IMG/VR virus record: IMGVR_UViG_3300002835_000066
Coordinates: 1 to 64,000 of that record
Source: a virus
Lineage: Duplodnaviria > Heunggongvirae > Uroviricota > Caudoviricetes
Reading direction: 5' to 3' (one strand)
DNA: 64,000 nt
The notes under the pieces were generated by a model. That model ran no database searches and was not told where the DNA came from. It saw only the letters and a program-made list of their open reading frames with translations. Positions within the stretch are counted from its first letter, which is position 1. Every line of letters starts with the position of its first letter. Below are positions 14,290 to 58,273 of this stretch, one piece after another. A program made the translations under genes and the position numbers.

Positions 14290-14295
14290 GTCATG

Positions 14296-30045: not shown

Positions 30046-30104
30046 ATTATTTCCTTTATTAAGAATTATAGAATATTTTGCAGGGATTTGCAATGTGTTT
30101 TGGG

Positions 30105-33093: not shown

Positions 33094-33366
33094 TTAACTC
33101 ACAAATACAGTAGGGCTACCCTGTATTATCGGGTGACCGCATGTGGTGCTTGACCCAACTCTTAATACCGGAACACCTTCAGCAAATACAGTTGGGCTTC
33201 CAGTAAGGGTTACCGATGCTTTATGTGGACCACCGGCAGGGTGAGGAGTTATTTTACTTACGTGCAGTCCAACCGGACGATTGTTAGCGAAGACAGTCTT
33301 TGCTCCTCTAATAATCTTTCCGCCGCCCGTGTTAATATCGCCTATTCTACTTAGTGGTTTTCCCAT
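33094..33366 (-). CDS. PAAR-repeat spike-tip protein
   Basis: 90 aa. Repeated ...G.PV.RVGD...C.GHP.I.GSPTVF... pattern (GSPTVFAEGVPVLRVGSSTTCGHPIIQGSPTVFVS), characteristic of the PAAR domain. Confidence 0.65.
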   Translation of the reverse strand: MGKPLSRIGDINTGGGKIIRGAKTVFANNRPVGLHVSKITPHPAGGPHKASVTLTGSPTVFAEGVPVLRVGSSTTCGHPIIQGSPTVFVS

Positions 33367-35028: not shown

Positions 35029-35649
35029 TTAATAATTCCCCGATGCTAATACGATTTTACAAATATGTTCTAGACGCTCAATATGTTCATATGCTCGCCA
35101 GGGAGTAGTGTCAATTGCAACTACACCATGCCCCTTAATGCCTACAATGTCATAAGCAATATTGCCTTCACTGTCAAGTCCTAAGTTAGTATGACATTGT
35201 GTAGCAAGTTCTTCACTGATAGGAGGAACATCGCCTACATTTGGAGCGACTCTAGTGTACCTGCCCAACTCAGGGAAGTGTATCACAAGCTCATTCAAGT
35301 TAATACCGGCGTGCATTGCAGCAACACAGTATGTAGGGTGAACATGGACTACAACACGAATGTCATCACTGTGCTGACCTAAAGCTTTTAGTAAGCCATA
35401 GTGCAGGGGAATCTCTCCGCTTGGCTGTAGCTCACTAGAGATAGCGGTGTAGGGTAAAACTTGCCAGCCGTTCTCATTTAACCCAATCTTTTTGAATTGA
35501 TCGGGCTGTAGTGTCTGCTTTCTTACACCACTAGGTGTGATATAGAAGTGGTCACGGTCATGATGGCGAATACTGATGTTGCCGTCGCGGCTAGTAATCC
35601 AGTTACGAGCATAGGCATCCTTTAAAATATCGCAAATTGTTTCTAACAT
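35029..35649 (-). CDS. class II aldolase/adducin-family protein (FucA/MtnB-like)
   Basis: 206 aa. GNISIR...FYITPSGV near the N-terminus and VHVHPTY (the HxH metal site) are typical of the family. Confidence 0.5.
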   Translation of the reverse strand: MLETICDILKDAYARNWITSRDGNISIRHHDRDHFYITPSGVRKQTLQPDQFKKIGLNENGWQVLPYTAISSELQPSGEIPLHYGLLKALGQHSDDIRVVVHVHPTYCVAAMHAGINLNELVIHFPELGRYTRVAPNVGDVPPISEELATQCHTNLGLDSEGNIAYDIVGIKGHGVVAIDTTPWRAYEHIERLEHICKIVLASGNY

Positions 35650-38581: not shown

Positions 38582-39784
38582 TCATACTCCGTATTTCCCT
38601 CTAAATGCAGCAAAGTTTAATGCAACCTGTTCTGCTGTCAGTGCGACATTATACACTTGTATAGCGGGTATGCTACCTGCAAATTTTGCGTTCCAAGAGT
38701 TGCCTATTGTATCAACCGGGTTATTATTTCCTGATGTAGAGTTTGCCACATTACTGTCTAATACCCCGTCTACATACATAGCCATCGTACTATTAGAATT
38801 GTTTACCCAAGTTAGCAAATGCCAGTTATTATCGTTGACAGTTGTACCAACGCCTAACTTCTGTGCCCATGCAGAGTTTTGATAAGTCCAATATGCAATC
38901 TTTCCGCTGTTTACACATAAAGCTGAGTATACTGGTCCGCCACTTAAGTTGGACAGTATTGAACCTTGACCAAGACCGGTTGCATCAGTAGTAGTTTTAA
39001 CCCAAGCACTAACAGTCCATGGCAGATTTCCATTACCTAAACTAATTGTAGGGATAGTTAAGAAGTCGGTTGATCCGTTAAAGCTAAATGTATTATTAGA
39101 TGCGTAGGTTAAACTATTGATAGTTATTGTTCTACTTCCAGTAACATCTAGCAGTGCATTAGTTGAGCTTCTGGAGCCAAACGGACCTACAAACGGAGCA
39201 GTAAAGTTACTAGATGAACTAATTAATACCTGAGGGTTTCTATAAAGAATGAATCCACTAGTAGCTAAACTAGTTCCGTTACATGCACCTGGATATAATA
39301 ACATTCTACATGTGCCAGTAGATCCGGCCTGAGCAGTAAATGTAGCCGTTTTCCAAACGCCGGTTACTGTCGGCGTAGGATCGGCTGCTGAGTTACTTAC
39401 TGCCGATTCAAAATTAGCGAGATAGTTGGTAACAGGATATCCGCCAGCACCCGGGGAAATATAATAATCAAATGTAAACGTTGCCCACTGACCAGCAGTA
39501 ATACTAACATCGTTGCCATGGTAATAGCATCCGCCTGCTGCAACTAAATCATATCGGTATACTACATCATTATTCGTAATAGAGTAGTTATCAAATGTTC
39601 CTGAATATGTTCGCTGAAACGTTCCGGTGCCTTGAACTTGAAAGGCAACATTATTGCTACCATCGGGAGTAGGGACCGCAAATTGGTTTGATACGGCTGC
39701 TCCTCTATACGACTGCGGATCATACATATCATAACCAAACAGTAATCCATCAGTAACTATTTTAGGACCGGATGCTACACTCAT
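38582..39784 (-). CDS. tail-fibre family protein, paralog 1 (C-terminal Laminin_G_3/ConA-like domain)
   Basis: N-terminus MSVASGPKIVTDGLL and C-terminus ...NNWHLLTWV...YVDGV...ALTAEQVALNFAAFRGKYGV are shared with seven downstream genes. Confidence 0.55.
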   Translation of the reverse strand: MSVASGPKIVTDGLLFGYDMYDPQSYRGAAVSNQFAVPTPDGSNNVAFQVQGTGTFQRTYSGTFDNYSITNNDVVYRYDLVAAGGCYYHGNDVSITAGQWATFTFDYYISPGAGGYPVTNYLANFESAVSNSAADPTPTVTGVWKTATFTAQAGSTGTCRMLLYPGACNGTSLATSGFILYRNPQVLISSSSNFTAPFVGPFGSRSSTNALLDVTGSRTITINSLTYASNNTFSFNGSTDFLTIPTISLGNGNLPWTVSAWVKTTTDATGLGQGSILSNLSGGPVYSALCVNSGKIAYWTYQNSAWAQKLGVGTTVNDNNWHLLTWVNNSNSTMAMYVDGVLDSNVANSTSGNNNPVDTIGNSWNAKFAGSIPAIQVYNVALTAEQVALNFAAFRGKYGV

Positions 39785-42006
39785 AAGTTGAATCTCCCGC
39801 GTATAGCATTAAAGTTTTGTGCTACTTCAGCATCAGATAGTGCCCTAGTGTAAGCAGTAACCATAGCCATATCACCTTGCCAAAATCCTGCATAGCCATT
39901 ACCTATGGTGATGTTGGCTGGTGTGTTAGCTAAAACCCCATATGGATTAGCTGTGGTTACACTCAACGCTCCATTTAGATACCATTTATATTGACTAGTG
40001 CTTCTAACAGTAGATATTACATTCCAAACACTTCTAGGGGTTGTCGGGCTTCCTACCCCCACATATGGTTCAGCGTTTGATCCTGCATTTCCGTAGAAGC
40101 CGCTGATGTTTTCGCCTTGTTCGTGTGTCCAAGTACCATACCCGCCATACGCTTGGTCCCATGGATTTCTTCTACCTGAGGTATATGTGTGTCTCATTAC
40201 TATCTGTAACGATTGAGCAGAAGCAAAATTCAAAGTAGCGTTATTGATAATTGTACCGTAATTACTAGTACCGTTAAAAGTATAAAACCCATTGTTAGTA
40301 GAAGGCAAATCTAGAAATGTACAGTTGTTGTTACTGCCGCTTATATCATACCACGTATTGCCTGCGTTTTGCAGTAGTTCTTGGATATTAGGTTCTGTGC
40401 CATCACACAAATCTACTCTTGGTTGATAGAATTGTAATCTTGTAGTGTTATCTGCACAATAATACAAATACGTTCTATGTAGACTTGTAGTTGAATTGGA
40501 ATTCCACTTTAAATCACCGGTGCCAATGTTGCACCCGTTTATATCACCGGCTCTACCGTTAATAGTATAATATCCAGTAGTAGGATTTCTACCAGTGAAT
40601 GTAGTGTTGGCTGGATATATATGACCTACAAACAAGTACCAAGTATTCTGTGCTAACCCACTAGTACCGCTGCACTCCCAATACGGATTGTCTGCTGCTG
40701 TATCATCACTCATTTTGCGCAGGCCGCCGTTACTTCCAGTACCTAAATAAAATGTGCCGCCACCGGTACTTGATGTTCTACGAACCCATACTGAGAAACG
40801 ATATAGTTGAGTATTGTCTATAGCAAAATCTGCTGTGTTCCAGCCACCGTCATCATTAGTTTCTGCTAGTGGTCTTGCTTCCCAAACAACTGCATTATTA
40901 CCCCATGGATTACTTGCAACTACTCTTTCGTTTTCAGCCGTTGCCCCGTTTTGACTATAACCAGTAATACTGCCTGAACCAGTGACCCAGTTGTTCCAGT
41001 TGATGACAGAGCGATTGCCTACGTTTGAATTAGGATTAGCAGCATCTAAGCATAGAGCCATATTTCCTACTGAGATAGGTGCTCCTCCAGTACTCTCTCC
41101 CAAAGAAGAATTGTATCTGACAATTACAATTCCAGATCCACCGTCACCGCCTTTATTCGTGAAGTTATAGTGGGAGCCGCCTCCTCCGCCGCCGCCCGTG
41201 TTGAGGCCACCATCGCCGCCCGGAGTGTTTGTTTGTGAGTTAGGAGAACCGCCACCTCCAGGAGAACCATTATTATACCCAGTTCCCCCAGTAGTCACTC
41301 CGACTGCGCCGCCACCACCTCCACCAACGCCGCCGTTACCTCCTGCACTTAAACTATATGCTGCGCCACCTCCACCACCGCCCCAAAAAAGATTACGATT
41401 GAGTATGCCATTCGCTATGCCTGGGCCACCATTGGGTGTGTTATTCGCATCAGTGCCGGCGCCACCAGCGCCACCACCACCACCACTATAGTAAGAACTG
41501 TTACCCCAGCCCCCGCGATTTCCTTGTCCGGCAGTACCGGTACCAGACGCACCGTAGCCTGTTCCAGTAGACAATGCAGGGGTTACACCGTTGTTATAAC
41601 CAGACCCGCCGCCGCCAGAGCCACCACTATTACCAAAACTGTTACCAAACGTATAGTATGATGTTCCGCCTGCTCCACCACCAACAGCAGTATTGCTACC
41701 AAATATACTATTTCCGCCATTTGTTCCCTTAGTAGTTGCGTGTCCACCAGTACCTGCAGGGGCTCCTGCACCTCCAGCACCAACTGTAACAGTTACTGGT
41801 GTACCTGAGGTTACTGATACACTCGTATTGCTAATGACGCCTCCGCCGCCGCCGCCGCCTCCCATATCTGATCCGGCCCCACCACCGCCGGCAACTACAA
41901 GAACTTCAATTGTACCTGTAAAGGACGGGGTAAAGACTCCAGAAGTTGCAAAAACTCTGACAGTATCAGTAGGAGCAGCGATATTTGGACCGGAAGCGAT
42001 TGCCAT
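39781..42006 (-). CDS. glycine-rich tail-fibre family protein, paralog 2 (741 aa)
   Basis: N-terminus MAIASGPNIAAPTDTVRVFATSG, a 300-aa poly-Gly/Ser/Asn region, and the C-terminal LamG-like block ending QNFNAIRGRFNL. Confidence 0.55.
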   Translation of the reverse strand: MAIASGPNIAAPTDTVRVFATSGVFTPSFTGTIEVLVVAGGGGAGSDMGGGGGGGGVISNTSVSVTSGTPVTVTVGAGGAGAPAGTGGHATTKGTNGGNSIFGSNTAVGGGAGGTSYYTFGNSFGNSGGSGGGGSGYNNGVTPALSTGTGYGASGTGTAGQGNRGGWGNSSYYSGGGGGAGGAGTDANNTPNGGPGIANGILNRNLFWGGGGGGAAYSLSAGGNGGVGGGGGGAVGVTTGGTGYNNGSPGGGGSPNSQTNTPGGDGGLNTGGGGGGGSHYNFTNKGGDGGSGIVIVRYNSSLGESTGGAPISVGNMALCLDAANPNSNVGNRSVINWNNWVTGSGSITGYSQNGATAENERVVASNPWGNNAVVWEARPLAETNDDGGWNTADFAIDNTQLYRFSVWVRRTSSTGGGTFYLGTGSNGGLRKMSDDTAADNPYWECSGTSGLAQNTWYLFVGHIYPANTTFTGRNPTTGYYTINGRAGDINGCNIGTGDLKWNSNSTTSLHRTYLYYCADNTTRLQFYQPRVDLCDGTEPNIQELLQNAGNTWYDISGSNNNCTFLDLPSTNNGFYTFNGTSNYGTIINNATLNFASAQSLQIVMRHTYTSGRRNPWDQAYGGYGTWTHEQGENISGFYGNAGSNAEPYVGVGSPTTPRSVWNVISTVRSTSQYKWYLNGALSVTTANPYGVLANTPANITIGNGYAGFWQGDMAMVTAYTRALSDAEVAQNFNAIRGRFNL

Positions 42007-42008
42007 TA

Positions 42009-42377
42009 TTATTCTCCCATTAATGGTTCAATGGTAGACAGTTCCCATTGTTGAACTGCTTCATTCCAAACATATGCATTACCATCATCGGGGTAGTCTA
42101 TAGGGGCTTTCCATTGACCAATAGTTTCATCAAGTACCCAGCTATCAAATGGCTTCGGAGGGATAAATGCATCCAAAGCTTCATCATATGAATAACCAAC
42201 ACCAGCATAATTCTTTCTTAATGGTGTGCCACCTTGCGTATGAACACCGGCGTGGGTATTGTAACTAGTTTGAATCCATTCTTGGGGAGGGCCCCACAAA
42301 CCAGTATCAATCATATCTTGTTCGATGACTATAACCTCCGTTACAGTTCCATCTTGTACTCTAGCAAAATGTGTCAT
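42009..42377 (-). CDS. hypothetical small protein between fibre genes (122 aa). Possible fibre assembly or chaperone protein.
   Basis: ORF with 4-nt overlaps on both sides. Confidence 0.35.
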   Translation of the reverse strand: MTHFARVQDGTVTEVIVIEQDMIDTGLWGPPQEWIQTSYNTHAGVHTQGGTPLRKNYAGVGYSYDEALDAFIPPKPFDSWVLDETIGQWKAPIDYPDDGNAYVWNEAVQQWELSTIEPLMGE

Positions 42378-43966
42378 AAATTAAATCTCCCTCTTAGTGC
42401 ATTGAAATTTTGTAGTATTTCTACTGCGGTAAGCACTCTGCTGTAAGCTACAAAGCTTGCTATTTTTCCATTCCAGTTTCTATCGCCTAAATTCCATCTG
42501 CCAATATCTAATGATTGACCATCATATAAAATGTTTCTATTGTTTGCAAGATCGCCTTGATTTAAAAATACACCATTAACATACACAATTGCTCTGTCAG
42601 AAGGAGTAAACGTCATTGTTATATTAGTCCAAATGTTGGCTGTCAGAGAAATTCCTCCAACAGCACTTATACCGCCGGTAGCGTCATGTGTGCCGAATCC
42701 ATAAACATTTGTATTCGTGCTGTCTTGTTGTAGCACAAAGCTTCGTGTTCCGGTGTGCGAGTTATCAAAAATGTCTGCATATTGAACTTGCGTAGTACCT
42801 GGGTTTACCCACACACTTATAGTAAAGTTTTGATAAGTGAAAAACGATCCCAAACTAACATAATCATTTACTCCATCTAAAACTAGAGATCCTAAATTAG
42901 CTGAGTTATATCCAACGCCATTAACAAGCGTCCCGTTATTGCCGCTACCACTAACGTCTCTCCAAAATGTACCTGATCCAGGATATGATAGCGGATTTCC
43001 AGCATCTACGCACACTACCATATCTCCTACTGAAGCAACTGCGCCTCCGGTACTTGATCCCAGTGAAGAATTGTATCTTATGATTACGATTCCTGAGCCG
43101 CCAGCACCGCCGGAGGTAACTTGCCAAGCGCCTCCGCCGCCTCCGCCGCCGGTGTTCATAGCGCCTGCTGCGCCATTGGTGTCAATTGCTGCTCCGATGC
43201 CCGAATTCAGCCCGTTACCACCACCATTAGTTGGACCAATGCCTCCTGAACAACTTCCGCCACCTCCGCCGCCGATGCCGCCGTCACCGGCATAGCCATT
43301 ATAATAGCCGCCGCCTCCGCCACCGCCAGCCCAGTAATATACTGTACCTAATATACTATTAACAACGCCGGCTCCACCGCGACCGTTTGCATTACCGGGA
43401 CTACTTTGAACAGTGTTACTATTAGTGTCTGCTGCTGCTGCACCAGCGCCGCCGCCGCCTGCTGCTGCTGTGGGTCCGCTAGTTCTGGCGGCTGTCATAT
43501 TTCCGCCACGATTGCCGTAAATTATTCCGGTATTTGAACCTAATGAATTTCCACTGCTAGTGCCGCCTTGATTTAATACGCTGTTATTTGATGCTGCGCC
43601 TCCGCCAGAACCACCAGTTACGCCGGCACCTGAATCGTGTACTCCGGAACCTCCGCCTCCCTTAGCAGTTGCTCCAAATGCAGTAGAGTCTCCTCCGCTG
43701 CCGCTGATACTGGAATATACTATTGCGGTGCCGCCAGCACCCACAGTAATAGTATATGGAGTTCCTGAAGTAACTGACACGGCAGGCATATACACTACGC
43801 CGCCGCCACCGCCGCCGCCTCCGATGCCGCCACCGCCGGCTCCGCCGCCAGCGACTACTAACACTTCAACTGTTCCCGTAAACGCAGGTGTAAAGGTTCC
43901 AGAGGTTGCAAAGACTCTGACAGTATCAATAGGAACAACAATATTTGGACCAGATGCTACACTCAT
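42374..43966 (-). CDS. glycine-rich tail-fibre family protein, paralog 3 (530 aa)
   Basis: N-terminus MSVASGPNIVVPIDTVRVFATSGTFTPAFTGTVEVLVVAGGG. C-terminus ...DGVNDYVSLGS...FTISVWV...VLTAVEILQNFNALRGRFNL. Confidence 0.55.
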   Translation of the reverse strand: MSVASGPNIVVPIDTVRVFATSGTFTPAFTGTVEVLVVAGGGAGGGGIGGGGGGGGVVYMPAVSVTSGTPYTITVGAGGTAIVYSSISGSGGDSTAFGATAKGGGGSGVHDSGAGVTGGSGGGAASNNSVLNQGGTSSGNSLGSNTGIIYGNRGGNMTAARTSGPTAAAGGGGAGAAAADTNSNTVQSSPGNANGRGGAGVVNSILGTVYYWAGGGGGGGYYNGYAGDGGIGGGGGGSCSGGIGPTNGGGNGLNSGIGAAIDTNGAAGAMNTGGGGGGGAWQVTSGGAGGSGIVIIRYNSSLGSSTGGAVASVGDMVVCVDAGNPLSYPGSGTFWRDVSGSGNNGTLVNGVGYNSANLGSLVLDGVNDYVSLGSFFTYQNFTISVWVNPGTTQVQYADIFDNSHTGTRSFVLQQDSTNTNVYGFGTHDATGGISAVGGISLTANIWTNITMTFTPSDRAIVYVNGVFLNQGDLANNRNILYDGQSLDIGRWNLGDRNWNGKIASFVAYSRVLTAVEILQNFNALRGRFNL

Positions 43967-45165
43967 ACCCCATACCTTCCGCGTAATGCGTTAAAGTTCT
44001 GCATTACTTCTGTTGCTGTTAGGGCTCTGTTATAGATCCTGCTTAAAGGTAATAAACCATTAAAGTTATGCACGCCGTCAGTGAGGCCTAAGCCGTAAGT
44101 TCCTAACACATATGTTGCATCGGGTATTGTTCCGGTTTGTGCTTCAGAATATATTTGCACCCCGTTTAAATAGGCCCTCATGATAGACCCGTCATACGTT
44201 CCCACAATGTGAGACCATGCATTATTAGGAACACTGCCGTTATACGATGCTACTCTACTCACGGATGTTTGATTTGCCCAGTGCAGTGAAAAAGTTACTC
44301 CTCCGTCAGTCGAGTCAATAATGCCCAAATACATACTGTTAGTTGAAGAAATTGATCCTCCTCTAATAGTTCCTGTTACCGTCGGTTTAGTAGGTCTAAT
44401 CCAAGACTCGCAGGTTATCGCAGTTGTTGGTTTGGTTGCAAAAGTAGACACTGTTAGGTAATTATTTGATCCATTGAAGCTAAACGACCCATCTGATGGA
44501 TATGTCAAACTTGTCGCAGTAATAATGTCCTGACCAGTAGGGTCTAATAATGCTTGTGTGTTTGATCTTGTACCTGGGACAAACGGTGTTGCATACGTGC
44601 CAAGCTCAAGTTGAAATCCACAATACTGAATTGTATATCCACCCGTTAGTCCGCCGGAATGTATCGGGAAATAATCTAGCACTGTGCCCGCAGTACACGG
44701 CCCAGTAGTTGAATATCTTACCCACTCAGTAGTATATGTTGGATTCCAATCGCCAGTAACTGCTTGGTCAACTCCATTTGATCTCCACAATTGACTATTA
44801 CTAAGATTAGAGGTAGCTGTCGGGCCGCTGATGATTCTAGCATAATACGAAAAGGTATGAGTGCCTGTTGTCGCTACAGTACCTTGAACTGCCCAATATT
44901 TATAGCCAGTTGTGCCGGTAGTATATTGCATTACTGCGGGAGAACCGATTGGATTTGAAACATTTGTGACGTAAGTATAGGTTTGTGTACCGGTAGCATC
45001 ATAATTATAACCACCGAATACAAAACTAGATCCGTTCCAATTAGCGTACGGGTTTGGTACTAGGTTTGTAGTGGGGGCGCCTTTCCAGGAACGGCCCGTA
45101 TTGCTCATATCATAAACAAGTACTAATCCATTAGTAACTATAGAAGGAGAATGTGCGAGAGCCAT
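43963..45165 (-). CDS. tail-fibre family protein, paralog 4
   Basis: MALAHSPSIVTNGLVLVYD ... ALTATEVMQNFNALRGRYGV. Confidence 0.55.
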   Translation of the reverse strand: MALAHSPSIVTNGLVLVYDMSNTGRSWKGAPTTNLVPNPYANWNGSSFVFGGYNYDATGTQTYTYVTNVSNPIGSPAVMQYTTGTTGYKYWAVQGTVATTGTHTFSYYARIISGPTATSNLSNSQLWRSNGVDQAVTGDWNPTYTTEWVRYSTTGPCTAGTVLDYFPIHSGGLTGGYTIQYCGFQLELGTYATPFVPGTRSNTQALLDPTGQDIITATSLTYPSDGSFSFNGSNNYLTVSTFATKPTTAITCESWIRPTKPTVTGTIRGGSISSTNSMYLGIIDSTDGGVTFSLHWANQTSVSRVASYNGSVPNNAWSHIVGTYDGSIMRAYLNGVQIYSEAQTGTIPDATYVLGTYGLGLTDGVHNFNGLLPLSRIYNRALTATEVMQNFNALRGRYGV

Positions 45166-46403
45166 TATATACCATACCTTCCACGGAGTGCATTAAAGTT
45201 TTGTAGTACTTCTGTATCAGTTAATACTCTACTGTAGATATAATGATTAGATATATTAACCGGAGAACAGTAGCCAGTGTCTACACTAATAGAACCTAGT
45301 GTTATTCCACCAATTGAATTTATAGCAAGATTAGTTCCAGCTTCCGCTCTTAAGATTGTTAGTGCGCCTGCTGTGTAATTAGTCATAGTTCCGTTAAAAA
45401 TTGAAATAGTACAATTTGCTCTTGTCATTGGACCAGCAACCTTTCTCCACGCCACACCAATCCATGTATTCAGTGGATAAGTTTGTCCGGTCGTGAAAGT
45501 ACTTTGACCCCAACTATCTACTGTGATTTCATTAGTGTTATTATAGTTCCAATTGCAAATTCCTTGTGCAGTGCCACCTGCATTTGAGCCGCCAATACCC
45601 CAAAAACCTTTGCTTGAGAAACTACCAGTTCGGTAGTAAAAGCCCATAACTGTTAGATCAGGATTACCTTGCAATACTGTCGGTGTCGGGGTAACGGTAG
45701 AAAAATCATTAACTCCATCAAATACGATACTACCTAAATTAGATGTATTATAAGTTGGTCCGTTAGTTAATGTGCTATTGAAGGCGTTACCGCTTCTATC
45801 AAGTAAATTAGAACGGTTAGTATTTTTCATAGGATTAAAACTAGAAGGAGTTGATGCTTGTTCTACTTGAATACCGTCCCACCAAATGTTTGTGCCGGTG
45901 CCGCCTGTAGGAGTTCCGTCTAATCTAAATTGTATGAAAGCAACGTTTGCATTTGAGAAGGTGAACGAATAACTTACTCTTGTCCAATCAGTAGTTATAG
46001 CGATGCTGCCAGCGCCGTAATCAGGAAATGTAAAGTCGCCGCCGCCTGAGTCCGCCCCAAAAATAAATAGTTCGCCGGTAGTAACAACTGATCCTTTAAC
46101 ATACACACTTACCGTCCAAGTTTGGCCGCTTGCAGCAGTTGATACATTATAAGGTGACGAATTATATGAGGCAATGTGTGGATCGTCTCCAGAGATAGCC
46201 ATCTTCAAGGGAATTCCACCTGCTGGACTAGGTGAGGTAGTAGAGTCTCTTGATAATGTTGCTGCGTAAGCAGAGGTGCCACTCCAACCGAATATATCTA
46301 GCGGAATAGGAAATGTATTAGGGCTATAGCTGCGAGGATTTCCAGCGTCGGCGCAATACACTAACCCATTAGTAACTACAGAAGGAGAGTGACCGAGTGC
46401 CAT
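45165..46403 (-). CDS. tail-fibre family protein, paralog 5
   Basis: MALGHSPSVVTNGLVYCADAGNPRSY ... VLTDTEVLQNFNALRGRYGI. Confidence 0.55.
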   Translation of the reverse strand: MALGHSPSVVTNGLVYCADAGNPRSYSPNTFPIPLDIFGWSGTSAYAATLSRDSTTSPSPAGGIPLKMAISGDDPHIASYNSSPYNVSTAASGQTWTVSVYVKGSVVTTGELFIFGADSGGGDFTFPDYGAGSIAITTDWTRVSYSFTFSNANVAFIQFRLDGTPTGGTGTNIWWDGIQVEQASTPSSFNPMKNTNRSNLLDRSGNAFNSTLTNGPTYNTSNLGSIVFDGVNDFSTVTPTPTVLQGNPDLTVMGFYYRTGSFSSKGFWGIGGSNAGGTAQGICNWNYNNTNEITVDSWGQSTFTTGQTYPLNTWIGVAWRKVAGPMTRANCTISIFNGTMTNYTAGALTILRAEAGTNLAINSIGGITLGSISVDTGYCSPVNISNHYIYSRVLTDTEVLQNFNALRGRYGI

Positions 46404-47074
46404 TAGATGCCGTACCTCCCTCGTGCTGCGTTGAAGTTTTGTAGCACTTCTGCGGCTGACAATACTCTATTGTACACTCTGCAAATAGATAATGCTCCAT
46501 TATAGTAATATCCGCCTGAGTTATAAGACCCTATGTACATCCCACTTGCATTAGTTGATATTGTTCCGGTTTGTGCATCTGAATTTACTTGGACACCGTT
46601 AATATAAAGTATTCTACTACCAGATGTATAAGTCCCTACAACCTGAAACCAATTAGATGTATTCATAAATGATGCAGTAGTTGTAGAAAGATTTGTGACA
46701 CCCCCAATATTCATTCTCCATTGTATCAAACCGCCTTCTTGAAACAATGCATATTGAGAATTTACAGTTCCTTTTTCGAACCAGAATCCATTTTGTGTAG
46801 TTGCGTTTGTCTTAACCCATACTTCAACTGTAGGAGTTTGTGTGTTAAGTGCAGTGTTGTCACTTGCGCTTGCAAAGTCATTTACGCCATCAAACGTAAA
46901 TGATCCCAAATTGCTACTTGAATATACGGGACCATTAGTTAGAGCAAAATTAAAACCACTACTTGTAGCATCATTCCATTGTGTACCCGACCCCGAATAT
47001 GATCTAGGATTGCCCGCATCTACACATAATACTAGCCCGGTAGTTACTATAGAAGGGGAATGCGCTAGGGCCAT
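46403..47074 (-). CDS. tail-fibre family protein, paralog 6 (short, LamG domain only)
   Basis: MALAHSPSIVTTGLVLCVDAGNPRSY ... FDGVNDF ... VLSAAEVLQNFNAARGRYGI. Confidence 0.55.
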   Translation of the reverse strand: MALAHSPSIVTTGLVLCVDAGNPRSYSGSGTQWNDATSSGFNFALTNGPVYSSSNLGSFTFDGVNDFASASDNTALNTQTPTVEVWVKTNATTQNGFWFEKGTVNSQYALFQEGGLIQWRMNIGGVTNLSTTTASFMNTSNWFQVVGTYTSGSRILYINGVQVNSDAQTGTISTNASGMYIGSYNSGGYYYNGALSICRVYNRVLSAAEVLQNFNAARGRYGI

Positions 47075-47077
47075 ATA

Positions 47078-47347
47078 TTATACCAAAGGAATATCAATAG
47101 TCCAGGCTTCAGTGGACATTAGTTCTAGTGCTTCATCATGCGTCATGTATGGGCCTTTTGATGTCAATGCTGCTACTGAGCTAGGAACACCATTGGCAGA
47201 TATCCACTTGACAATTGTTTTAGTTCCATCTACACTGATACGAAGCGTATCAATTGATGTTTGTTCTATCTGTTCAAAGTCTAACGATGATGCTTCGCTC
47301 AAATCAAGCGTAACATATGTTAGACCGTTTTCTTCTGTTAAACTCAT
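47078..47347 (-). CDS. hypothetical small acidic protein between fibre genes (89 aa)
   Basis: ORF. Confidence 0.35.
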   Translation of the reverse strand: MSLTEENGLTYVTLDLSEASSLDFEQIEQTSIDTLRISVDGTKTIVKWISANGVPSSVAALTSKGPYMTHDEALELMSTEAWTIDIPLV

Positions 47348-47997
47348 ATTCCATATCTCCCTCTGGTAGCATTGAAATTCTGTGTTACTTGGTCAGCCGT
47401 TAGTGCAGTGTTGTACATCATGACATTAGAAATGAGACCTTGCCACGCATAAGCACCTCCCGGTTGCCACCAACCTACACGCAAGCCAACTGACCAATCT
47501 GCTGTTCCGGTAGTTGATTGCTGACCCTGATAAACACCTTGCCGATATATTGATACATTTGAACCGTTATAAGATACGCAATAACATCCCCAAGTTCCGA
47601 GTGGGATACTTGTAGGCTTGCTATAATAGTATTCTCCGGTTGCTCCCCCGTGAGTGTAGAACCAACTATTGTCACCGTACCAATAAAATGAAGCATTGGT
47701 TCTTGCTGCTACTGGCATTCTGTTTTCAGCGTCTCGCTTTGCCCAAAACATAATAGTATAAGTTGCCATAGTTCCTAAATTAGCTGAGAAATCTACATAA
47801 TCGTCTACACCATCAAAAGATAGCGACCCTAAGTTAGCAGAATTGTACGTGGGACCGTTTACGATAGAACCGGTATTATTACTGCCACTCAATTGAAACC
47901 AATTAGTTCCCGAACCAGGATAACTTCTTGGATTAGCTGCATCTACGCAGAATAGTAAACCATTAGTTACAATTGAGGAGTTATACGAAATACTCAT
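47344..47997 (-). CDS. tail-fibre family protein, paralog 7 (short)
   Basis: MSISYNSSIVTNGLLFCVDAANPRSYPGSG ... FDGVDDYV ... ALTADQVTQNFNATRGRYGI. Confidence 0.55.
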   Translation of the reverse strand: MSISYNSSIVTNGLLFCVDAANPRSYPGSGTNWFQLSGSNNTGSIVNGPTYNSANLGSLSFDGVDDYVDFSANLGTMATYTIMFWAKRDAENRMPVAARTNASFYWYGDNSWFYTHGGATGEYYYSKPTSIPLGTWGCYCVSYNGSNVSIYRQGVYQGQQSTTGTADWSVGLRVGWWQPGGAYAWQGLISNVMMYNTALTADQVTQNFNATRGRYGI

Positions 47998-48641
47998 ATT
48001 CCGTATCTCCCTCGGTAAGCGTTAAAGTTTTGTATAATCTGAGCCTCAGTTAATACTGTGTTGTATATTAGCAAGATTCCTATCTGAGAATTAGAAAATT
48101 CACTGAGTCCCGGAAAATAGCAGCCGATTCCTAAACCGTTAGGGCCTTGGCTCCCTCCGGTGCTTGGGCCGGCAGTAAGCACACCATTTGTATACATGCT
48201 ATATGAATCAGATGCAATATTGCCAGTTGCTGCATAGATTCTCCAATTAGTATCACTGGCCCCGGAGGCAACTCCAGATACCCATCCTTCAGCATAATAG
48301 TTTTCAGTAGTAGTACCCCATTGCCCCATTAGCCAATTGTTGTTTCTGCCGGAAAAGGTTCTTCCGCCTGCTACTGCGTATCTCGCTGCACCAATTATAG
48401 TATAATTAGTTGATGCCATATTAGGTCCAGGAATATCTATGTAGTCGTTTACCCCATCTAGAACAAATACTCCACCGTTAACTGAGCTATAAGTAGGACC
48501 GTTCACTAGTGTGCCGGTGTATCCGTTGCCACTTGCGTCACTAATAGTGGTTCCTGAGCCTGGATAAGTTCTAAGATTACCCGGGTCAAAACAAGCAATT
48601 AAGTTAGAAGTAACTATTCCTGGATTATACGAAATAGCCAT
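47994..48641 (-). CDS. tail-fibre family protein, paralog 8 (short)
   Basis: Start set at MAISYNPGIVTS (cat at 48639-48641), which matches the family N-terminus. Ends VLTEAQIIQNFNAYRGRYGI. Confidence 0.5.
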   Translation of the reverse strand: MAISYNPGIVTSNLIACFDPGNLRTYPGSGTTISDASGNGYTGTLVNGPTYSSVNGGVFVLDGVNDYIDIPGPNMASTNYTIIGAARYAVAGGRTFSGRNNNWLMGQWGTTTENYYAEGWVSGVASGASDTNWRIYAATGNIASDSYSMYTNGVLTAGPSTGGSQGPNGLGIGCYFPGLSEFSNSQIGILLIYNTVLTEAQIIQNFNAYRGRYGI

Positions 48642-48646: not shown

Positions 48647-51600
48647 TTATCCGTATGTAGCGTTTAGCGTATACCATTGTGTTGCTGAAACTGAGACAAA
48701 CTCTAGTCTTGCGCCTGCTGGTTGTGCATAAGCAGCGTTAGTTGCAGCAGAGTTGATAGCAGCACCAGAAGGAGGATATACATTCAATGCAGTAGCACTT
48801 GTGTTCATAACAAGGATTCTGGCGCCAGCCGGAACAGTTGGAAGAATAACACCAGTACTTGCACTTACCGTACTTACTACGTTGATCGGTCTAGTTAGTG
48901 TAGTAGCAGTACCCTGTGTCGAGCCTGCTGCTGTAATGCCTGTAGTGACACCATATGATACAAAGCCACCTGATGCTGCAAACTGAATGTTGCCGCCAGC
49001 ATCAACACTAATCATTGGGATACCAGAAACATCGTTAACTGTAAAGATGTTGCCGGTCATGCTATCTGTAATACTGAACAACTGTCCTGCGTTACCTGAC
49101 CAAGCTAATGTACCGCCATTGAGCATTGTGCTGTTGATAGTATTTGCAGCATTAGGTGATACGTAAGCAATATTACTTGCAATGTTTAAGTTTGTGAAGA
49201 AGCTGTTTGCGTTTGCACCAATACCGCCTGTGACAATTAGCGCACCAGTAGTTCTGCTTGTCGCCGCAGTGCTGTTTGTGATACTTACTGCGCCACTTGA
49301 AGTCAAACCAGTGAGTGTACCGACAGACGTAATGTTTGGTTGAGCAGCAGTTGTTACAGTACCGGCTGTGGTTGCACTAGTAGCAGCGCCGCTTAATGCA
49401 CCAACAAACGTTGTAGCAGTAATAGAATTGTTTGATAAGTTAGCAGTGAGACCTGTGCTGGTGAGTTCATTAACATTGCCGGTTGCTGCGCTTGCAAAGA
49501 CAATAAAGTTATTACCTGTACCGGCCGCTACACTTATCGTATCAGTAACACCTGATTGAGCAACGTTTAAGTTTGCTACTTGCGTAGTTGAAGTTACTGT
49601 TAATGGAGCAGTACCAGTAGCAATGTTTGAAATTAGTCTAGTACCAGTAATAGTTCCATTTACACCCAATGATGTTAATGTACCAACGCTTGTGATATTT
49701 GGTTGTGCTGCTGTTGTTACAGTACCAGCAGTACCTGCTGAAGTTGCGAATGTCGCATTTGCTACAGTACCAGTGACATTAGCACCGGCAATAGCACTTA
49801 ATCCACTACCATTACCAGTGAATACACCTGTATTAGCAGTAAACGCTGATGCAGTAACAGTACCACTTACACCTAAACTTGTTAGCGTACCAGTTGAAGT
49901 GATGTTTGGTTGTGCTGCTGTTGTTACAGTACCAGCAGTAGTTGCGCTAGTTGCTGCTCCTGATAGGGCGCCGACAAAAGTTGTAGCAGTAATAGAATTG
50001 TTTGATAAGTTAGCAATAAGACCAGTACTTGTTAGTTCTGTTATGTTTCCGGTTGCTGCGTTTGCAAAGATAAGGAAGTTATTTCCTGTTCCAGCAGCTA
50101 CGCTAATGAAGTCAGCAACGTTTGCATAGTTAACATTCAAGTTAGCTACACGAGTTGTTGAAGTTACTGTCAACGGAGCAGTACCTGTTGCAACATTTGA
50201 TGTTAATGTACTTGCAACAACCGCAGTAGTTGCATTTAAATTACCAACGTTAGCATTACCGGTAACTGCTAATGATGTAAGCGTACCCACACTAGTGATG
50301 TTTGGTTGAGCGGCTGTTGTTACTGTACCTGCTGTTGTGGCACTTGTTGCAGCTCCTGATAGAGCGCCGACGAATGTTGTAGCAGTAATAGAATTGTTTG
50401 ATAAGTTAGCAGTAAGGCCTGTGCTTGTTAGTTCTGTTATATTACCTGTTGCCGCATTTGCAAAGATAAGGAAGTTATTACCTGTTCCAGCCGCTACGCT
50501 AATGAAGTCCGCGACATTTGCATAATTAACATTCAAGTTAGCAACGCGGGTAGTACTTGTTACTGTTAATGGAGCAGTACCAGTTGCAACATTTGAAGTC
50601 AGCGTACTTGCTACTACTGCTCCGGCAGTATTTAGGTTACCTGCACTTGCGTTACCTGTTACAGCTAGTGATGTTAATGTACCCACACTCGTAATATTAG
50701 GCTGTGCTGCTGTTGTTACTGTACCAGCTGTACCTGCACTAGTTGCAAAAGTTGCGTTAGCAACTGTACCAGTTACGTTAGCACCAGTAAGAGCGGTTAG
50801 TCCACTACCATTGCCTGTAAATACGCCGGAGTTAGCAGTGAATGCCGGGGCTGTTATAGTGCCGCTTGAGTTTAGTCCGGTTAGTGTACCGACAGCGGTA
50901 ACCTGTGTCTGACTTGCATTTACACTAAACGTTGAACCAGTTAGTGTTAAACCAGTTCCTGCTTGATAGGTTCCCGCACCTGAGAACTGCTCCCAAACTA
51001 TTGGATCCGTGCCGACAGTAGTAACTTCGTCAATTTGCACCCAACCAGTTGAATTATATACTGTACCGGCGGTGATGAAAGTGAAGTCACCACCTGCGAT
51101 TTCAACAGCAGTATCAAAATCAGTAGCACGAGTCAACACTGTTGCACTTGTTCTTACATAGATACCATTATTTGCTTGAGTTGCTTCGTTCTTAACAAGA
51201 ATACGCATTCCGTCTGATAGTGTGACACCATCAATAGTTGTATATGAACCTGTTGTAGTTAGTGTTGCACCTACACCAGCTGTACCGTTATTATATGTAA
51301 CTGTACCACCTGAAATAGTTGCAAGTGTAGTAGTTGTGGCCGCGTTACAAGAAGGGTGAATATTCAAACCTTGAGCAACATCGTCTACATATTGTTTGGT
51401 TGCTGCATCGGTTGATGCAGTTGGAGTAGCAAGATTGATAATTGTATTGCTAGTCATATCCAAATTACCAGCAATGCTGCTTACGCCTGTGCCTGTTACA
51501 CTAAGTATACCAGTTGTAGTTAAGTTACCTGCTGCAACGTTACCTGTCACTGTCGCTGATGTTAGTGTACCAACTGATGTAATGTTTGGTTGTGCTGCTG

Positions 51601-54600
51601 TTGTTAGTGTGCCGGTGAACAAGTTAGCAGTAATAACATTAGCACCAGAGATGTTACCACCTGTGCCTGATCCTGTTATGATATTACCAGCAGAAAGATT
51701 TCCGGATACGTTAGCAGTACCGGTGATGTTTGCTCCAGTACCGGTAACAACAAGCACATTAGCATTACCAACTGCTGAGATATTGACATTGCCGTTTGCA
51801 GCAGGAATATTTACGTTTGAGTTGCCGTTTGCGTGTGGTCCAAGCAAGTTACCGACTGTTGCATTTCCAGTTACAGCAAGAGAAGTTAATGTACCAACTG
51901 AGGTGATATTTGGCTGCGCCGCAGTTGTTACAGTACCAGCTGTGGTTGCGCTCGTAGCAGCACCACTCAATGCACCAACGAATGTAGTTGCTGTGATAGA
52001 GTTATTAGATAAGTTAGCAGTAAGACCGGTGCTTGTTAGTTCTGATATGTTGCCCGTTGCTGCGTTTGCGAATATGAGGAAGTTATTTCCTGTTCCAGCA
52101 GCTACACTGATAAAATCAGCAATGTTTGCACGAGCAACATACAAGTTAGGAACAACTGTGGTAGATGTTACTACAAACGGAGCAGTACCAGCAGCAACAT
52201 TTGAGATTAGTTGCGGAGCAGTCACGTTCGCAGTTGCAAGAACTTGAGCAGTACCTAAGTTACCTACGTTAGCATTACCATTAGCGTTTAACGTTCCAGC
52301 AACGTTGATTCCAGTACTTGTGATAGTAATCTCGGCGGGCGTGCCTGTTGCAGAAAGAGTAATATTACCGTTCGCAGTAATAGAGATATTACTATTGCCG
52401 TTTTGCACTAGCGGTACGTTAGCTGCGGTAGTAAAGATACCTGTTGCTAACCCTAAGTTACCGACGTTAGCATTGCCGGTCACATTCAATGTTCCAGCAA
52501 CGTTTGCGCCAGTTCCCGTTACTACTACAATATTTGCATTACCTACGGCTGAGATATTAACATTACCATTTGCAGCAGGAATGTTGACATTTGAGTTTCC
52601 ATTTGCGTGTGGTCCAAGCAAGTTACCGACTGTTGCATTTCCGGTTACAGCAAGAGAAGTTAATGTACCAACGCTTGTAATATTTGGCTGCGCCGCAGTT
52701 GTAACTGTCCCAGCAGTAGTTGCACTTGTTGCAGCTCCACTTAGAGCACCGACGAACGTAGTGGCCGTGATGCTTGAGTTACCTAAGTTAGCACTAATGC
52801 CAGTATTAATAACAGCACTTGAGTTGCCATTTGCACTACTTGTACTGAATGTTGGGTATACTGTAGTTGCAGTTGAGGTGTTCTGTAATAATGCTGATGC
52901 ATTTGTCGCAGCAGTAGCACTTGCTACTGTACCGGTTACATTAGCACCTGCAATTGCACTTAGGCCACTACCGTTACCAGTGAATACACCTGTATTAGCA
53001 GTGAATGCAGAAGCAGTTACCGTACCACTGACACCTAATGATGTTAATGTACCAACTGATGTAATGTTAGGTTGCGCTGCCGTTGTTACTGTACCGGCTG
53101 TGGTTGCGCTCGTAGCAGCACCACTTAATGCACCAACGAATGTAGTGGCTGTGATAGAGTTATTTGATAAGTTAGCAATGAGTCCAGTACTTGTTAGCTC
53201 TGTTATGTTACCTGTTGCCGCATTTGCGAATATGAGGAAGTTATTGCCTGTGCCAGCAGCTACGCTAATAAAATCAGCAACGTTTGCATAATTAACGTTC
53301 AAGTTAGCAACACGAGTAGTGCTTGTTACTGTTAGTGGAGCAGTACCGGTTGCGACATTGGACGTTAGAGTACTTGCAACTACAGCACCAGCAGTATTCA
53401 AGTTGCCTGCACTTGCGTTACCCGTAACTGCTAATGATGTTAATGTACCAACTGATGTGATATTTGGTTGTGCTGCTGTTGTTAGTGTGCCACCTAAGGT
53501 AGTTGCTACTACACCAGTCGCGCCTAAGTTACCAACATTAGCGTTTCCAGTTGCGTTTAATGTACCTGCTACGTTAACACCAGTTGCAGTTACAACAACA
53601 ACGTTAGCAGTACCTACAGCACTGATATTAACATTTCCATTTGCTGCTGGAATGTTTACGTTTGAGTTGCCGTTAAGAATTGATGAGCCTGCTGCTACCG
53701 TAATACCAGTTAACTGACTACCATTCCCAATGAAGAACGGAGCAGAAACGTTACCGGCAAATGCTACGTTAGTGTTAGCGGAATAAGCAGTCATTGATAT
53801 GCCACTTACTACACCGGTTGCATTTTGAGTGAATAGACGGAAGTTGTTACTTGCATCGACATCCATGTTCCAAGTAGAGTTTGCTTGACCGGTTATGTTA
53901 TTGACGCCTGCATACCCTAATATTATTTGACCACCTTCAGCGCCAGTTGAACCAACTATAAGGTTGTCATTACCGTATATTCGGGTAGTTGCGTTTAAGT
54001 TACCAACGTTAGCATTTGCTGTTACAGCCAATGATGACAGCGTACCCACTGATGTAATGTTAGGTTGAGCCGCAGTTGTTACTGTACCCGCAGTAGTTGC
54101 AGAACCAGCAGAAGTTGCGAATGTCGCATTTGCAACAGTACCGGTGACATTAGCACCTGCAAGTTGTGATAGGCCTGCACCATTGCCTGTAATCAATCCG
54201 CTGTTTAGTGTGATTGTTCCATTACCAAATACTGCATTAGCTGTAGCATTACCGACAGTTAGACCGGTCAACGTACCGACTGATGTGATATTGGGTTGAG
54301 CAGCAGTTGTAACTGTGCCAGCAGTAGTTGCAGCGCCGGTCAACGCCCCAACAAATGTTGTTGATGTTACACTAGTTAGACCAGTTACAGTTGTTGTAGT
54401 AGTGCCAAGTTCAAGAGTTGTATTACCTAGAATTACGTTTGAGTTTGCTAGTCTTACTTGAGCAAGAGTACCACTTGAGACGTTGCTTGCATTTAGTGTA
54501 GTTAAGTTAGCACCACTACCTGCAAACAATGTAGCACTGACAAGAGCAACACCATTAATGTTTGAGCCAGTACCTGACATTGTGATATCGGCGTTTGCTG

Positions 54601-57600
54601 CTAATGTCAAACCAGTTAATGTACCAACCGATGTAATATTGGGTTGAGCCGCTGTTGTTACAGTGCCGGCTGTTGTAGCAGAACCAGCAGAAGTTGCGAA
54701 TGTCGCATTTGCTACTGTGCCTGACACGTTAGCTCCGGCTACTGCGTTAGCTGTAGTTGCAAAAGCGACTGCACCAGTAACGTTAGCGCCTGCGATTGCA
54801 CTCAGCCCACTGCCATTACCTGTAAAGACGCCAGTGTTTGCAGTGATGTTAACACCAGTGATTGTCCCGTTAACGCCGAGTCCAGTTAATGTACCGACTG
54901 AAGTAATATTACCTTGTGCAGCAGTTGTTACTGTACCCGCAGTACCTGCTGAAGTTGCGAATGTCGCATTTGCTACTGTACCAGTAACATTAGCTCCTGC
55001 AATTGCACTTAGACCTGAGCCATTACCAGTAAAGACTCCTGTGTTAGCAGTGATATTTGCAGCAGTAATGTTGCCACTTACACCAAGTGACGTAAGCGTA
55101 CCAACACTTGTGATATTGGGTTGTGCAGCAGTAGTTACAGTGCCTGCCGTAGTAGCAGCGCCAGTCAATGCACCAACGAATGTAGTAGACGTAACGCTTG
55201 ATAAGCCAGTTACAGTTGTTGTAGTAGTGCCAAGTGCAAGAGTTGTGTTACCTAATATTACATTTGAGTTTGCTAGTCTTGCTTGTGCTAATGTACCACT
55301 TGAAACGTTACTTGCATTTAGTGCAGTAAGTGCCGAACCATTACCTGTAAATACACCGGTATTTGCTGTGAATGCTGGGGCAGTGACAGTGCCGCTTGAG
55401 TCTAAACCAGTTAGTGTACCTACACTAGTGATTGTGGGCTGTGCTACGTTTACGCTAAACTGTGAGCCAGTTAATGTTAAACCAGTACCAGCAGTATATG
55501 TACCCGCACCAGAGAACTGTACCCAAACAACTGCGGATGTACCGACAGTTGTTACTGGATCTGGCATCACCCAACCCGTATTATCGTATAGCGTTCCGGC
55601 AGTGACGAATGTGAAGTCACCTCCTGCCATTTCAGTAGGAGTATCAAAATCAGTTGAACGAGTTAATACAGTTGTGCTTGTGCGATCATATATACCATTA
55701 TGCGCTGTGTTTGCTTCATTCTTAACAAGGATGCGCATTCCATTTGATAGGGTAACACCGTCAATAGTGGTATATGTTCCAGTTGTAGTTAAGGTTGCGC
55801 CGACACCGGCAGTACCATTATTATATGTTACAGTACCACCTGAAATAGTTGCCAATGTAGTTTGTGTGGCTGCGTTACAACTATCGTGTGTATGTAGACC
55901 TTGAGCAACATCGTCAACATATTGTTTAGTAGCAGCATCAGTTGAATTAACCGGAGCTGCAAGATTGATAATATTGTTGCTGGTCATGTCTAGGTTGCCA
56001 GCAATGCTGCTTACGCCAGTACCAGTTACACTCAATACACCAGTTGTTGTCAAGTTACCAGCAGCGACATTGCCTGTTACTGTAGCACTTGTTAGTGTGC
56101 CTACTGAGGTGATATTAGGTTGTGCAGCGGTGTATACTGTACCCGCTACTAATGCGTTAGCTACTTGACCACTAACATTAGCTCCAGCCACTGCGTTAGC
56201 TGTTGTAGCGAATGCAACTGCTCCACTAACATTAGCTCCGGCTACTGCATTGGCTGTTGTAGCGAATGCTACTGCACCAGTAACGTTAGCCCCAACAATT
56301 GAACTTAATCCATTACCATTGCCAGTGAATACACCAGAGTTAGCAGTGATGTTAACACCAGTAATTGTTCCGTTAACACCAAGTCCGGTTAATGTACCGA
56401 CACTAGTTATGTTACCTTGGGCAGCAGTTGTTACAGTACCCGCTGTTCCTGCACTTGTTGCAAATGTCGCATTTGCTACAGTACCGGTTACATTAGCACC
56501 TGCAATTGCACTTAACCCACTACCGTTACCAGTGAATACGCCTGTATTTGCTGTGATGTTTGCAGCAGTAACGTTGCCGCTGACACCTAAACTTGTTAGT
56601 GTACCGACTGATGTAATGTTGGGCTGGGCTGCTGTAGTGACAGTACCAGCAGTTGTAGCACTCGTAGCGGCGCCACTTAGCGCGCCAACGAATGTAGTTG
56701 CGGTAATAGAGTTGTTTGATAGGTTAGCAGTGAGGCCTGTACTTGTTAGTTCGGTGATATTCCCAGTTGCTGCGTTGGCAAAGATGAGGAAATTATTCCC
56801 AGTTCCAGCGGCCACACTGATAAAATCAGCAACGTTTGCGTGATTGACATTTAAATTAGCTACACGAGTAGTTGAAGTTACCGTTAGTGGCGCAGTACCT
56901 GTTGTGACATTTGAAGTCAGTGTACTTGCTACTACTGCACCAACAGTATTTAAATTACCTGCACTTGCATTGCCTGTGACCGCAAGTGAGCTTAATGTAC
57001 CAACCGAAGTGATATTTGGCTGAGCCGCAGTTGTTACTGTACCAGCAGAGGTTGCAAATGTCGCATTTGCTACAGTACCGGTGACATTAGCACCCGCGAG
57101 TTGTGATAGGCCTGCGCCGTTGCCAGTAATCAATCCAGAGTTGAGAGTGATTGTTCCGTTGCCGAATACCGCATTAGCAGTTGCATTACCAATAGTTAGT
57201 CCAGTTAGCGTACCGACTGAAGTGATATTAGGTTGTGCTGCCGTTGTGACAGTACCTGCTGTAGTTGCTGCGCCAGTCAATGCCCCGACAAATGTAGTTG
57301 ATGTAACACTTGATAAGCCAGTTATTGTTGTTGTAGTAGTGCCAAGTGCAAGAGTTGTATTACCTAGAATTACGTTTGAGTTTGCTAGTCTTGCTTGAGC
57401 AAGAGTACCACTTGATACATTGCTTGCATTTAGTGCGGTCAATGCTGAACCATTACCGGTGAATACACCTGTATTTGCAGTGATGTTTGCAGCAGTAATG
57501 TTACCACTTACACCTAAACTAGTTAGATTGCCTACGCTAGTGATATTCGGCTGTGCTGCGGTTGTTACCGTTCCGGAAGTTGTTGCACTTGATACAGTAC

Positions 57601-58222: not shown

Positions 58223-58273
58223 TATCTATTTCCTATACTCATCTTACTATTTATAATCATATGAATCATGCTT

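Follow-up and report, generated by a model that had tools for sequence, protein, structure and literature searches.

In the 64,000-nt stretch of DNA analysed here (positions 1 to 64,000 of the IMG/VR record IMGVR_UViG_3300002835_000066, a virus of the Caudoviricetes; hereafter, the window), the minus strand between positions 38582 and 48641 carries ten tightly packed genes: eight paralogs, P1 to P8, whose products contain laminin-G-type (LamG) domains, and two small open reading frames (ORFs), s1 and s2. This array most likely represents a fast-turning-over ('hyperplastic') set of modular lectin-type adhesin genes encoding virion-borne accessory receptor-binding or adhesion proteins, a reading to which a probability of about 0.6 can be given. 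In the mechanism proposed, a Laminin_G_3 jellyroll would end each protein, closed by an N-terminal strand (GLVLxxDAxNPxSY) and an amphipathic helix (LTxxEVxQNFNAxRGRYGI), and extra binding modules, either CBM_4_9-like or glycine-rich and of the TNF-like/polyglycine-II type, would be lodged between a short head and the LamG body. Each protein may recognise a different cell-surface glycan, and the set would change from one related phage to another as genes are gained, lost or replaced and domains inserted, a reshuffling that would tune host range. The array and the giant fibre gene that precedes it probably form one operon, in a phage that appears uncultured, tRNA-rich and probably equipped with a contractile tail.

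The original prediction, made from the letters of the window, described eight paralogous genes with conserved ends around a LamG/ConA-like core, which is borne out by both motifs and domain matches. All eight proteins share the head M(A/S)(I/V/L)(A/S)xxPxI, a pattern found nowhere else in the window, and the tail QNFNAxRG(R/K)(Y/F)(G/N)(I/L/V). The search for Laminin_G_3 (PF13385) that had been proposed as a check placed six of the eight (P2, P3, P5, P6, P7 and P8, with 38-84 bits) above the gathering cut-off of 27.6 bits. P1 and P4 have no Pfam match at E<0.01, and both match PHROG 8510 and a hidden Markov model (HMM) built from P3 orthologs. This HMM recognises all eight paralogs, as does PHROG 8510 (annotated 'virion structural protein'), and PHROG 24074 is matched by P1 to P6, not by P7 or P8. 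The family is widespread, with 1442 homologs of P3 in metagenomes.

The AlphaFold2 model of P3 is a single globular jellyroll with a predicted local distance difference test score (pLDDT) of 92.6, in which residues 1-13 are coil, LVLCVD forms the first strand and LSAAEVLQNFNAARGRYGI the C-terminal helix. In the model of P6 (pLDDT 77.9), a disordered head (residues 1-22) is followed by the Gly-rich region (about 30-300), a disordered linker (300-332) and a LamG domain ending in the same helix as that of P3. Both models display the two-sheet jellyroll of ConA-like/LamG domains. The nearest solved folds of P3 in a Foldseek search are lectin-like (BoNT Hc-N and the trans-sialidase lectin domain), and further near neighbours of the P3 and P6 models are CBM40, domain 4 of AbnA and the Pan3 tailspike gp15. 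At the sequence level, a P3 profile and the P6 LamG sequence retrieved from PDB sequences only generic LamG and carbohydrate-binding module (CBM) domains, and no phage protein. The genes had been called fibre genes; the compact P3 model speaks against this term, and P1 to P8 are predicted from the models to be globular modular lectin-type proteins rather than fibres. Because the domain and fold assignments point to LamG, CBM_4_9 and Gly_rich_2, every recognisable module appears to be a binding module and none enzymatic. The receptor-binding or adhesion role that had been proposed is plausible.

The ten genes lie in the order P1, P2, s1, P3, P4, P5, P6, s2, P7, P8, all on the minus strand; related loci are designated below by L numbers. 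P1 (47994-48641; 215 aa) comprises the head and a LamG-like domain, its start being set at the conserved MAISY of an ORF extendable to 48677; without a Pfam match, it matches PHROG 24074 (E 1.4e-33) and the family HMM (E 1.8e-69), and has orthologs of 65-71% identity in L007 and L098. P2 (47344-47997; 217 aa), with head and Laminin_G_3 (Pfam E 4e-19), has an ortholog (89%) solely in L096. It is followed by s1 (47078-47347), encoding an acidic protein of 89 aa, and by P3 (46403-47074; 223 aa), which again consists of head and Laminin_G_3 (Pfam E 2.1e-22). P4 (45165-46403; 412 aa) combines the head, a possible CBM_4_9-like module and a LamG-like domain; it matches PHROG 22177 in addition to 8510, the family HMM spans its residues 199-412 (E 8e-23), and no ortholog above 40% identity was found among the relatives compared. 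In P5 (43963-45165; 400 aa), the head is followed by a CBM_4_9-like module and Laminin_G_3 (Pfam E 1.8e-23). P6 (42374-43966; 530 aa) carries the head, a Gly_rich_2 domain of the TNF-like/polyglycine-II type, a linker and Laminin_G_3. The acidic 122-aa product of s2 (42009-42377) belongs to PHROG 7759. P7 (39781-42006; 741 aa) contains the head, Gly_rich_2, a middle module and Laminin_G_3, and the last gene of the array, P8 (38582-39784; 400 aa), the head, a CBM-like module and Laminin_G_3 (Pfam E 1.7e-17); its tail reads RGKYGV and its ortholog in L096 is 54% identical.

ATGA overlaps of start and stop codons had been described throughout. They are present at only five of the ten junctions between the giant gene and P8, two others being TAATG and three being gaps of 2-5 nt. 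Where an ATGA overlap requires codon 2 to start with A, and only there, residue 2 is Ser; in the other paralogs it is Ala. The codons for RGR in the C-terminal tail (AGAGGGAGA, CGAGGGAGG and similar) provide a Shine-Dalgarno-like GGAG site, 8-10 nt ahead of the ATG that follows. Dual coding was considered as the main reason for the RGR motif and rejected: since RGR is the commonest tail in the whole family (117 of 217), the motif would serve primarily at the protein level, with a role in ribosome binding as a possible addition. A scan of the array for promoters and terminators revealed no enrichment over shuffled sequences.

Among the eight paralogs, mean pairwise identity reaches 52% in the head and 56% in the last 26 residues, compared with 26% in the LamG core. 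Hence the picture of constant ends around a variable middle, put forward in the original prediction, holds among the paralogs; it does not hold among the orthologs of P3, in which the beta-core is most conserved and the ends less so. Nor are the clamped termini special to the array. Of 262 family ORFs taken from further viral contigs, 256 have a domain that stops no more than 5 residues short of the C-terminus, 181 have one that starts no more than 12 residues after the N-terminus, and 172 contain the tail motif. The strict head pattern was found in 105 of 268 LamG ORFs and in 0 of 1520 other ORFs. Moreover, the protein S-PM2p176 contains two fused LamG modules, with the same tail and head motifs flanking the junction. 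Because of these family-wide ORFs, S-PM2p176 and the conservation among P3 orthologs, the conserved ends are best modelled as fold elements, namely the first beta-strand and the C-terminal helix, of a large phage LamG subfamily. A docking role for the head (the first ~9 residues) would be a guess from the models.

Among the modules added to this body, the glycine-rich stretches of P6 and P7 had been taken for low-complexity poly-Gly inserts behind an identical leader. They correspond to the Pfam domain Gly_rich_2 (PF21722; 41.5 bits in P6 and 44.4 bits in P7, for a cut-off of 24.3), which has folded adhesin-type relatives, and the leaders are similar only, with 78% DNA identity over 161 nt. 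The domain is inserted between MSVASGPNI and the strand GLxxCxDAxNP. An hhalign comparison of the P6 family with gp24 of phage Pam3 gave an E value of 3e-5, and a local HMM of the Gly domain matches residues 93-275 of gp24; its match to gp33 of phage Bxb1 is not significant. Both gp24 and gp33 are Gly-rich (22% and 30% Gly, respectively), and neither was matched by the LamG HMM. Pam3 gp24 consists of a TNF-like and a glycine-rich lattice domain, was proposed to be a receptor binder and is related to gp38 of phage S16 (PMC9608196, PMC9942802). Bxb1 gp33 contains the same type of bundle (PMC13243192) and is located on an accessory tail wing (PMC12646305), and such Gly-rich domains sit at receptor-binding tips (PMC9608196, PMC9942802, PMC13243192). 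Because of the likeness to gp24 and gp33, the Gly stretches are regarded as a folded adhesin-type domain, which resembles the TNF-like/polyglycine-II adhesins in both structure and sequence. A tblastn search of phage records with the Gly-rich domain gave no match, which the active low-complexity filter may explain. A phmmer search of the same domain against the PDB produced G4S-linker artefacts only and was set aside.

The insertion of the Gly domain is also polymorphic among relatives. Residues 316-741 of P7 are 79% identical to a 441-aa protein of L007 that is devoid of it; proteins of the P7 type carry the domain in the window phage and in L099 and lack it in L007, L146 and L148. As for the second kind of module, CBM_4_9 (PF02018; gathering cut-off 25.9 bits) gave a sub-threshold match in P4 (19 bits, E 0.0019) and no match in P5, P7 and P8. 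Among 37 scanned proteins of the 400-aa class (35 homologs, P5 and P8), 8 were found to contain it, with a best E value of 3.9e-12.

The two tiny ORFs interspersed in the array had been suggested as possible chaperones. The first, s1, has no Pfam or PHROG match and is present in every related array compared, with 48-83% identity. In 8 of 12 viral loci, the gene immediately before it is a LamG-family ORF; these eight comprise the close relatives L146 to L148 and five of nine distant homologs (33-38% identity); in three of the other four the upstream ORF falls below the HMM threshold, and the fourth, L156, is at a contig edge. Homologs of s2 were found in 46 viral loci (34 distinct proteins), as well as in cultured pelagiphages, roseophages and cyanophages. 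A Gly_rich_2 gene is directly upstream of s2 in 24 of 32 distinct readable cases, compared with a background of 45 of 422 ORFs (11%), and s2 was not found in any of L007, L096, L097 and L098, whose arrays have no Gly-rich gene. In Melnitz, a cultured phage of the T4-like type, the tail-fibre module contains two Gly-rich/s2-like pairs, genes 171/172 and 181/182. Like tail-fibre chaperones in general, s1 and s2 are thus small conserved genes directly downstream of an adhesin gene, and adjacency marks them as dedicated conserved partners. The more specific notion that s2 is a homolog of the Pam3 chaperone gp25 was rejected, as the profile search was empty and hhalign gave a probability of 0.8%. 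Most likely, s2 assists the folding or assembly of the Gly-rich domain and s1 that of a LamG protein. The pairing of s2 with Gly-rich genes suggests a possible new family of chaperones for polyglycine-II adhesin domains, which lends itself to testing.

The array is genuine. The whole window is 100% identical to a 122,658-bp ENA contig (ERZ27272032 k141_34343), and P3 to P8 are ~100% identical in three NCBI assemblies, one JGI and one Logan assembly. An artefact or collapsed repeats, which would have undone the case for eight tandem copies, is thereby excluded: the array recurs in six independent assemblies, and paralog cores of just 26% identity are too divergent for mis-assembly. A search for near-identical DNA in 50,697 phage records gave no match; the phage is therefore considered uncultured.

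Comparison with related phages indicates how the array changes. The order giant fibre, array, 146-148-aa gene and NrdA is kept in three syntenic relatives (L096, L098 and L007); in L097, the fibre and the array are present, and homologs of d187 and NrdA were not found. A repeat-rich gene of at least 1788 aa lies just upstream of the LamG genes in all four, with nothing between them in L007 and L096 and with intervening small ORFs in L097 and L098. Within this conserved setting the copy number differs, as the proposed comparison was meant to reveal: there are three LamG genes in L096 (NrdA identity 98%), eight in the window phage, about 11 in L098 (86%) and 12-13 in the 358-kb contig L007 (85%). 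In nine related phages, 78 LamG ORFs fall into 39 clusters at 55% identity or more, 22 of which occur in a single phage; the P3 type is the most widely shared and the only one to reach seven of the nine. Close relatives match the window in a mosaic fashion: in L146, P1, P2, s1 and P8 are 93-96% identical to those of the window and P3 is 74% identical. In L005, an otherwise identical strain, DNA identity is 93% for P2, 96% for s1 and 99.8-100% for P3 to P8, a pattern that points to a recombination boundary within the array. Across a broader sample of viral loci, array size ranges over 1-12 genes, with a mode of three. A set of genomes from 185,579 species yielded 31 further relatives (L160 to L190), all of them metagenome-assembled bins with at most 39% identity and none an isolate. 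Many of these bins are labelled Patescibacteria or candidate phyla radiation, with contigs of up to 425 kb, and are uninformative for the host; the relatives could be phage contigs binned wrongly or genuine cellular LamG proteins that share the tail motif.

The tandem paralogs with conserved ends and variable middles had also prompted the idea of a diversification cassette, that is, a locus that actively diversifies or switches (by a diversity-generating retroelement, an invertible segment or phase variation) and provides alternative tips. This is very improbable. No reverse transcriptase, invertase or recombinase was detected among 42 proteins of the window (the ten of the array and 32 others, a subset of the window ORFs, scanned against Pfam, PHROGs or both). 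There are no near-identical template and variable repeats, the best DNA repeat between paralogs being 161 nt at 78% identity, and no pairs of inverted repeats in positions 1-48700. All the genes are on one strand, the six independent assemblies are ~100% identical over the array, and the paralogs are old, as their 26% core identity indicates. The locus thus resembles neither the target of a diversity-generating retroelement nor a shufflon-type switch. Because no reverse transcriptase, recombinase or template repeats were found, change in the array is taken, from the sequences compared, to be evolutionary gene turnover rather than an active switch.

Where the proteins act is less certain, and the genes upstream of the array bear on this question. 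A giant fibre-like protein of 3191 aa is encoded directly upstream (48647-58222, minus strand), and the array begins 5 nt past its gene. A second fibre-like protein, of 1219 aa (58274-61933, minus strand), is a paralog of the giant one, has PHROG matches and ends in a C-terminal region that resembles, by eye, an intramolecular-chaperone tail. Both contain AAQPNITSVG-type motifs, in 21 copies in the giant protein and 6 in its paralog, whose register P-x-I-x-x-x-G is that of the head of the LamG paralogs (SPSIVTNG). The short shared head xSPxIVTxGL likewise resembles the repeat AAQPNITSVGTL of the giant fibre, which accounts for the 21 copies. This likeness raises the tentative and rather unlikely idea that the eight lectins are interchangeable or co-assembled ornaments of giant repeat fibres, a 'bottle-brush' of mixed glycan binders in which the head would dock on the fibre by strand complementation at many sites. 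If true, it would amount to bet-hedging at the level of the particle, each phage having its own mix of glycan binders, like the lectin sets of umbrella toxins. A T4-late-promoter-like octamer, TATAAATA, is found at 58248-58255 (minus strand), 26 nt upstream of the ATG of the giant gene. With 5 matches in the window for 5.9 expected, the octamer is not enriched, and its position alone makes it suggestive, as a lead only.

It is possible, at perhaps a third of the weight given to the favoured reading of virion-borne accessory adhesins, that the proteins are decorations of the capsid or of head fibres and provide non-specific adherence to particles, mucus or exopolymers, comparable to Hoc and Ig-like proteins, rather than binding a host receptor. 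The upstream genes for the 1219-aa protein and for a 500-aa protein match PHROG 2647, 'head decoration', PHROG places family 8510 under 'head and packaging', and LamG lectins are generic glycan binders. However, PHROG categories are coarse and set per family, the solved relatives of the Gly domain, Pam3 gp24 and Bxb1 gp33, are all tail structures (PMC9942802, PMC12646305), and the s2-like/Gly-rich pairs of Melnitz are located in a tail-fibre module, beside neck and tail-fibre genes. A role outside the virion, in or on the infected cell, through superinfection exclusion, masking of receptors on debris or scavenging of polysaccharides, is improbable; the array adjoins the nucleotide-metabolism genes nrdAB, which would fit such a role. 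Against it, the translations show neither a signal peptide nor a hydrophobic N-terminus, translation of the array is coupled to that of the 3191-aa fibre gene, and modules homologous to these form the ends of proteins with virion or tail-fibre annotations, gp050/051 of the Flavobacterium phage immuto and S-PM2p176 being homologs with virion-type annotations.

The favoured reading, that of virion-borne accessory adhesins, itself faces several difficulties. P6 and P7 are without the helical attachment domain of Pam3 gp24 or S16 gp38; in the P6 model, residues 1-22 are unstructured and no helix is predicted ahead of the Gly domain. The head shared by the paralogs comprises only ~9-25 residues, unstructured in the models. 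The best PDB match of s2, gp25, is not significant (phmmer E 0.15 over 43 residues), and sugar-binding residues were not identified in the LamG domains. The PHROG matches of the neighbouring fibre genes are partly 'head decoration', so that these could be head fibres. Finally, the phage is uncultured, and the annotations of its homologs may themselves have been inferred.

Elsewhere in the window, a PAAR-like protein of 90 aa (33094-33366) was recognised by eye and through a PAAR_motif match in the syntenic gene of L096; it is followed by a 993-aa protein (30105-33086), and the two genes suggest a contractile-tail spike complex near the array. A class II aldolase-family gene (35029-35649) is located between nrdA and nrdB, as it is also in L007. 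The 28 tRNA genes, all on the minus strand (697-15272), lie amid small ORFs that include an HNH endonuclease (3954-4520) and point to a large, tRNA-rich phage genome. Three radical S-adenosylmethionine (SAM) ORFs, one with a SPASM domain and two with B12-binding domains, are accompanied by a SAM synthetase and a RimK-type ATP-grasp ligase (10696-12207, 20506-22422, 25502-27106, 28948-30093 and 22465-23358), a group that may be a peptide- or nucleotide-modification cluster. The 5′ end of the SPASM ORF overlaps tRNA calls at 12074-12235, and the real start probably lies further downstream. The window also has auxiliary genes that are uncommon in phages, which encode a Coq4-like protein, a family 2 glycosyltransferase, a DUF481 protein, a phosphomannomutase, a peroxiredoxin and an SPFH/Band 7 protein (5988-6641, 6625-7494, 7592-8260, 17408-18109, 23429-23968 and 24024-24821).

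Little is known of how uncultured aquatic phages recognise their hosts, and the locus defines a very common uncharacterised phage LamG module, together with its accessory modules and two families of partner genes. If the proteins are virion lectins, the composition of the array would allow host range or adhesion specificity to be read off, and its genes would be natural parts for engineered phage binding.

Several known systems share part of this design. The Gly domain of P6 and P7 is like that of Pam3 gp24, which is paired with the chaperone gp25 (PDB 7YPX), and of S16 gp38 (PMC9608196, PMC9942802); unlike them, P6 and P7 are without an N-terminal helical docking domain and carry an additional C-terminal LamG domain, and s2 is not detectably homologous to gp25. 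The tail wing brush protein gp33 of Bxb1 (PDB 9D93), a Gly-rich polyproline-II/polyglycine-II bundle in a dispensable accessory tail structure (PMC12646305, PMC13243192), has no LamG domain and is encoded by a single gene, not an array, in a siphovirus of Actinobacteria. The same LamG module, head and tail motifs occur in PHROGs 8510 and 24074 ('virion structural protein' and unknown function, respectively) and in S-PM2 p176, in which two tandem modules are fused at the C-terminus of a 1058-aa protein named 'virion structural protein' in RefSeq; here, at ~33% identity, each module is encoded by its own gene within an eight-member array, with CBM-like or Gly-rich additions. The tailspikes TSP1-4 of CBA120, those of the Klebsiella jumbo phage phiKp24 and similar proteins are trimeric and enzymatic, with sizeable conserved N-terminal anchors, whereas the array proteins are small, apparently non-enzymatic and built of lectin-type modules, with only a short head in common. 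The umbrella toxin of Streptomyces, in which diversified lectins on a common scaffold allow combinatorial targeting (PMC13274773), is a conceptual analogy only: it is not a phage system, its lectin folds and scaffold are different, and no homology is claimed. A literature search for LamG arrays in phages returned no description of such arrays, nor was one found for a large array of rapidly reshuffled small LamG genes with head and tail in common, combined with optional CBM or Gly-rich insertions and two conserved partner families. Precedents do exist for the components taken singly, as LamG domains in phage structural proteins, polyglycine-II adhesin domains and clusters of multiple receptor-binding protein genes, and the differing gene combinations suggest a swappable host-adhesion toolkit rather than a new type of machine.

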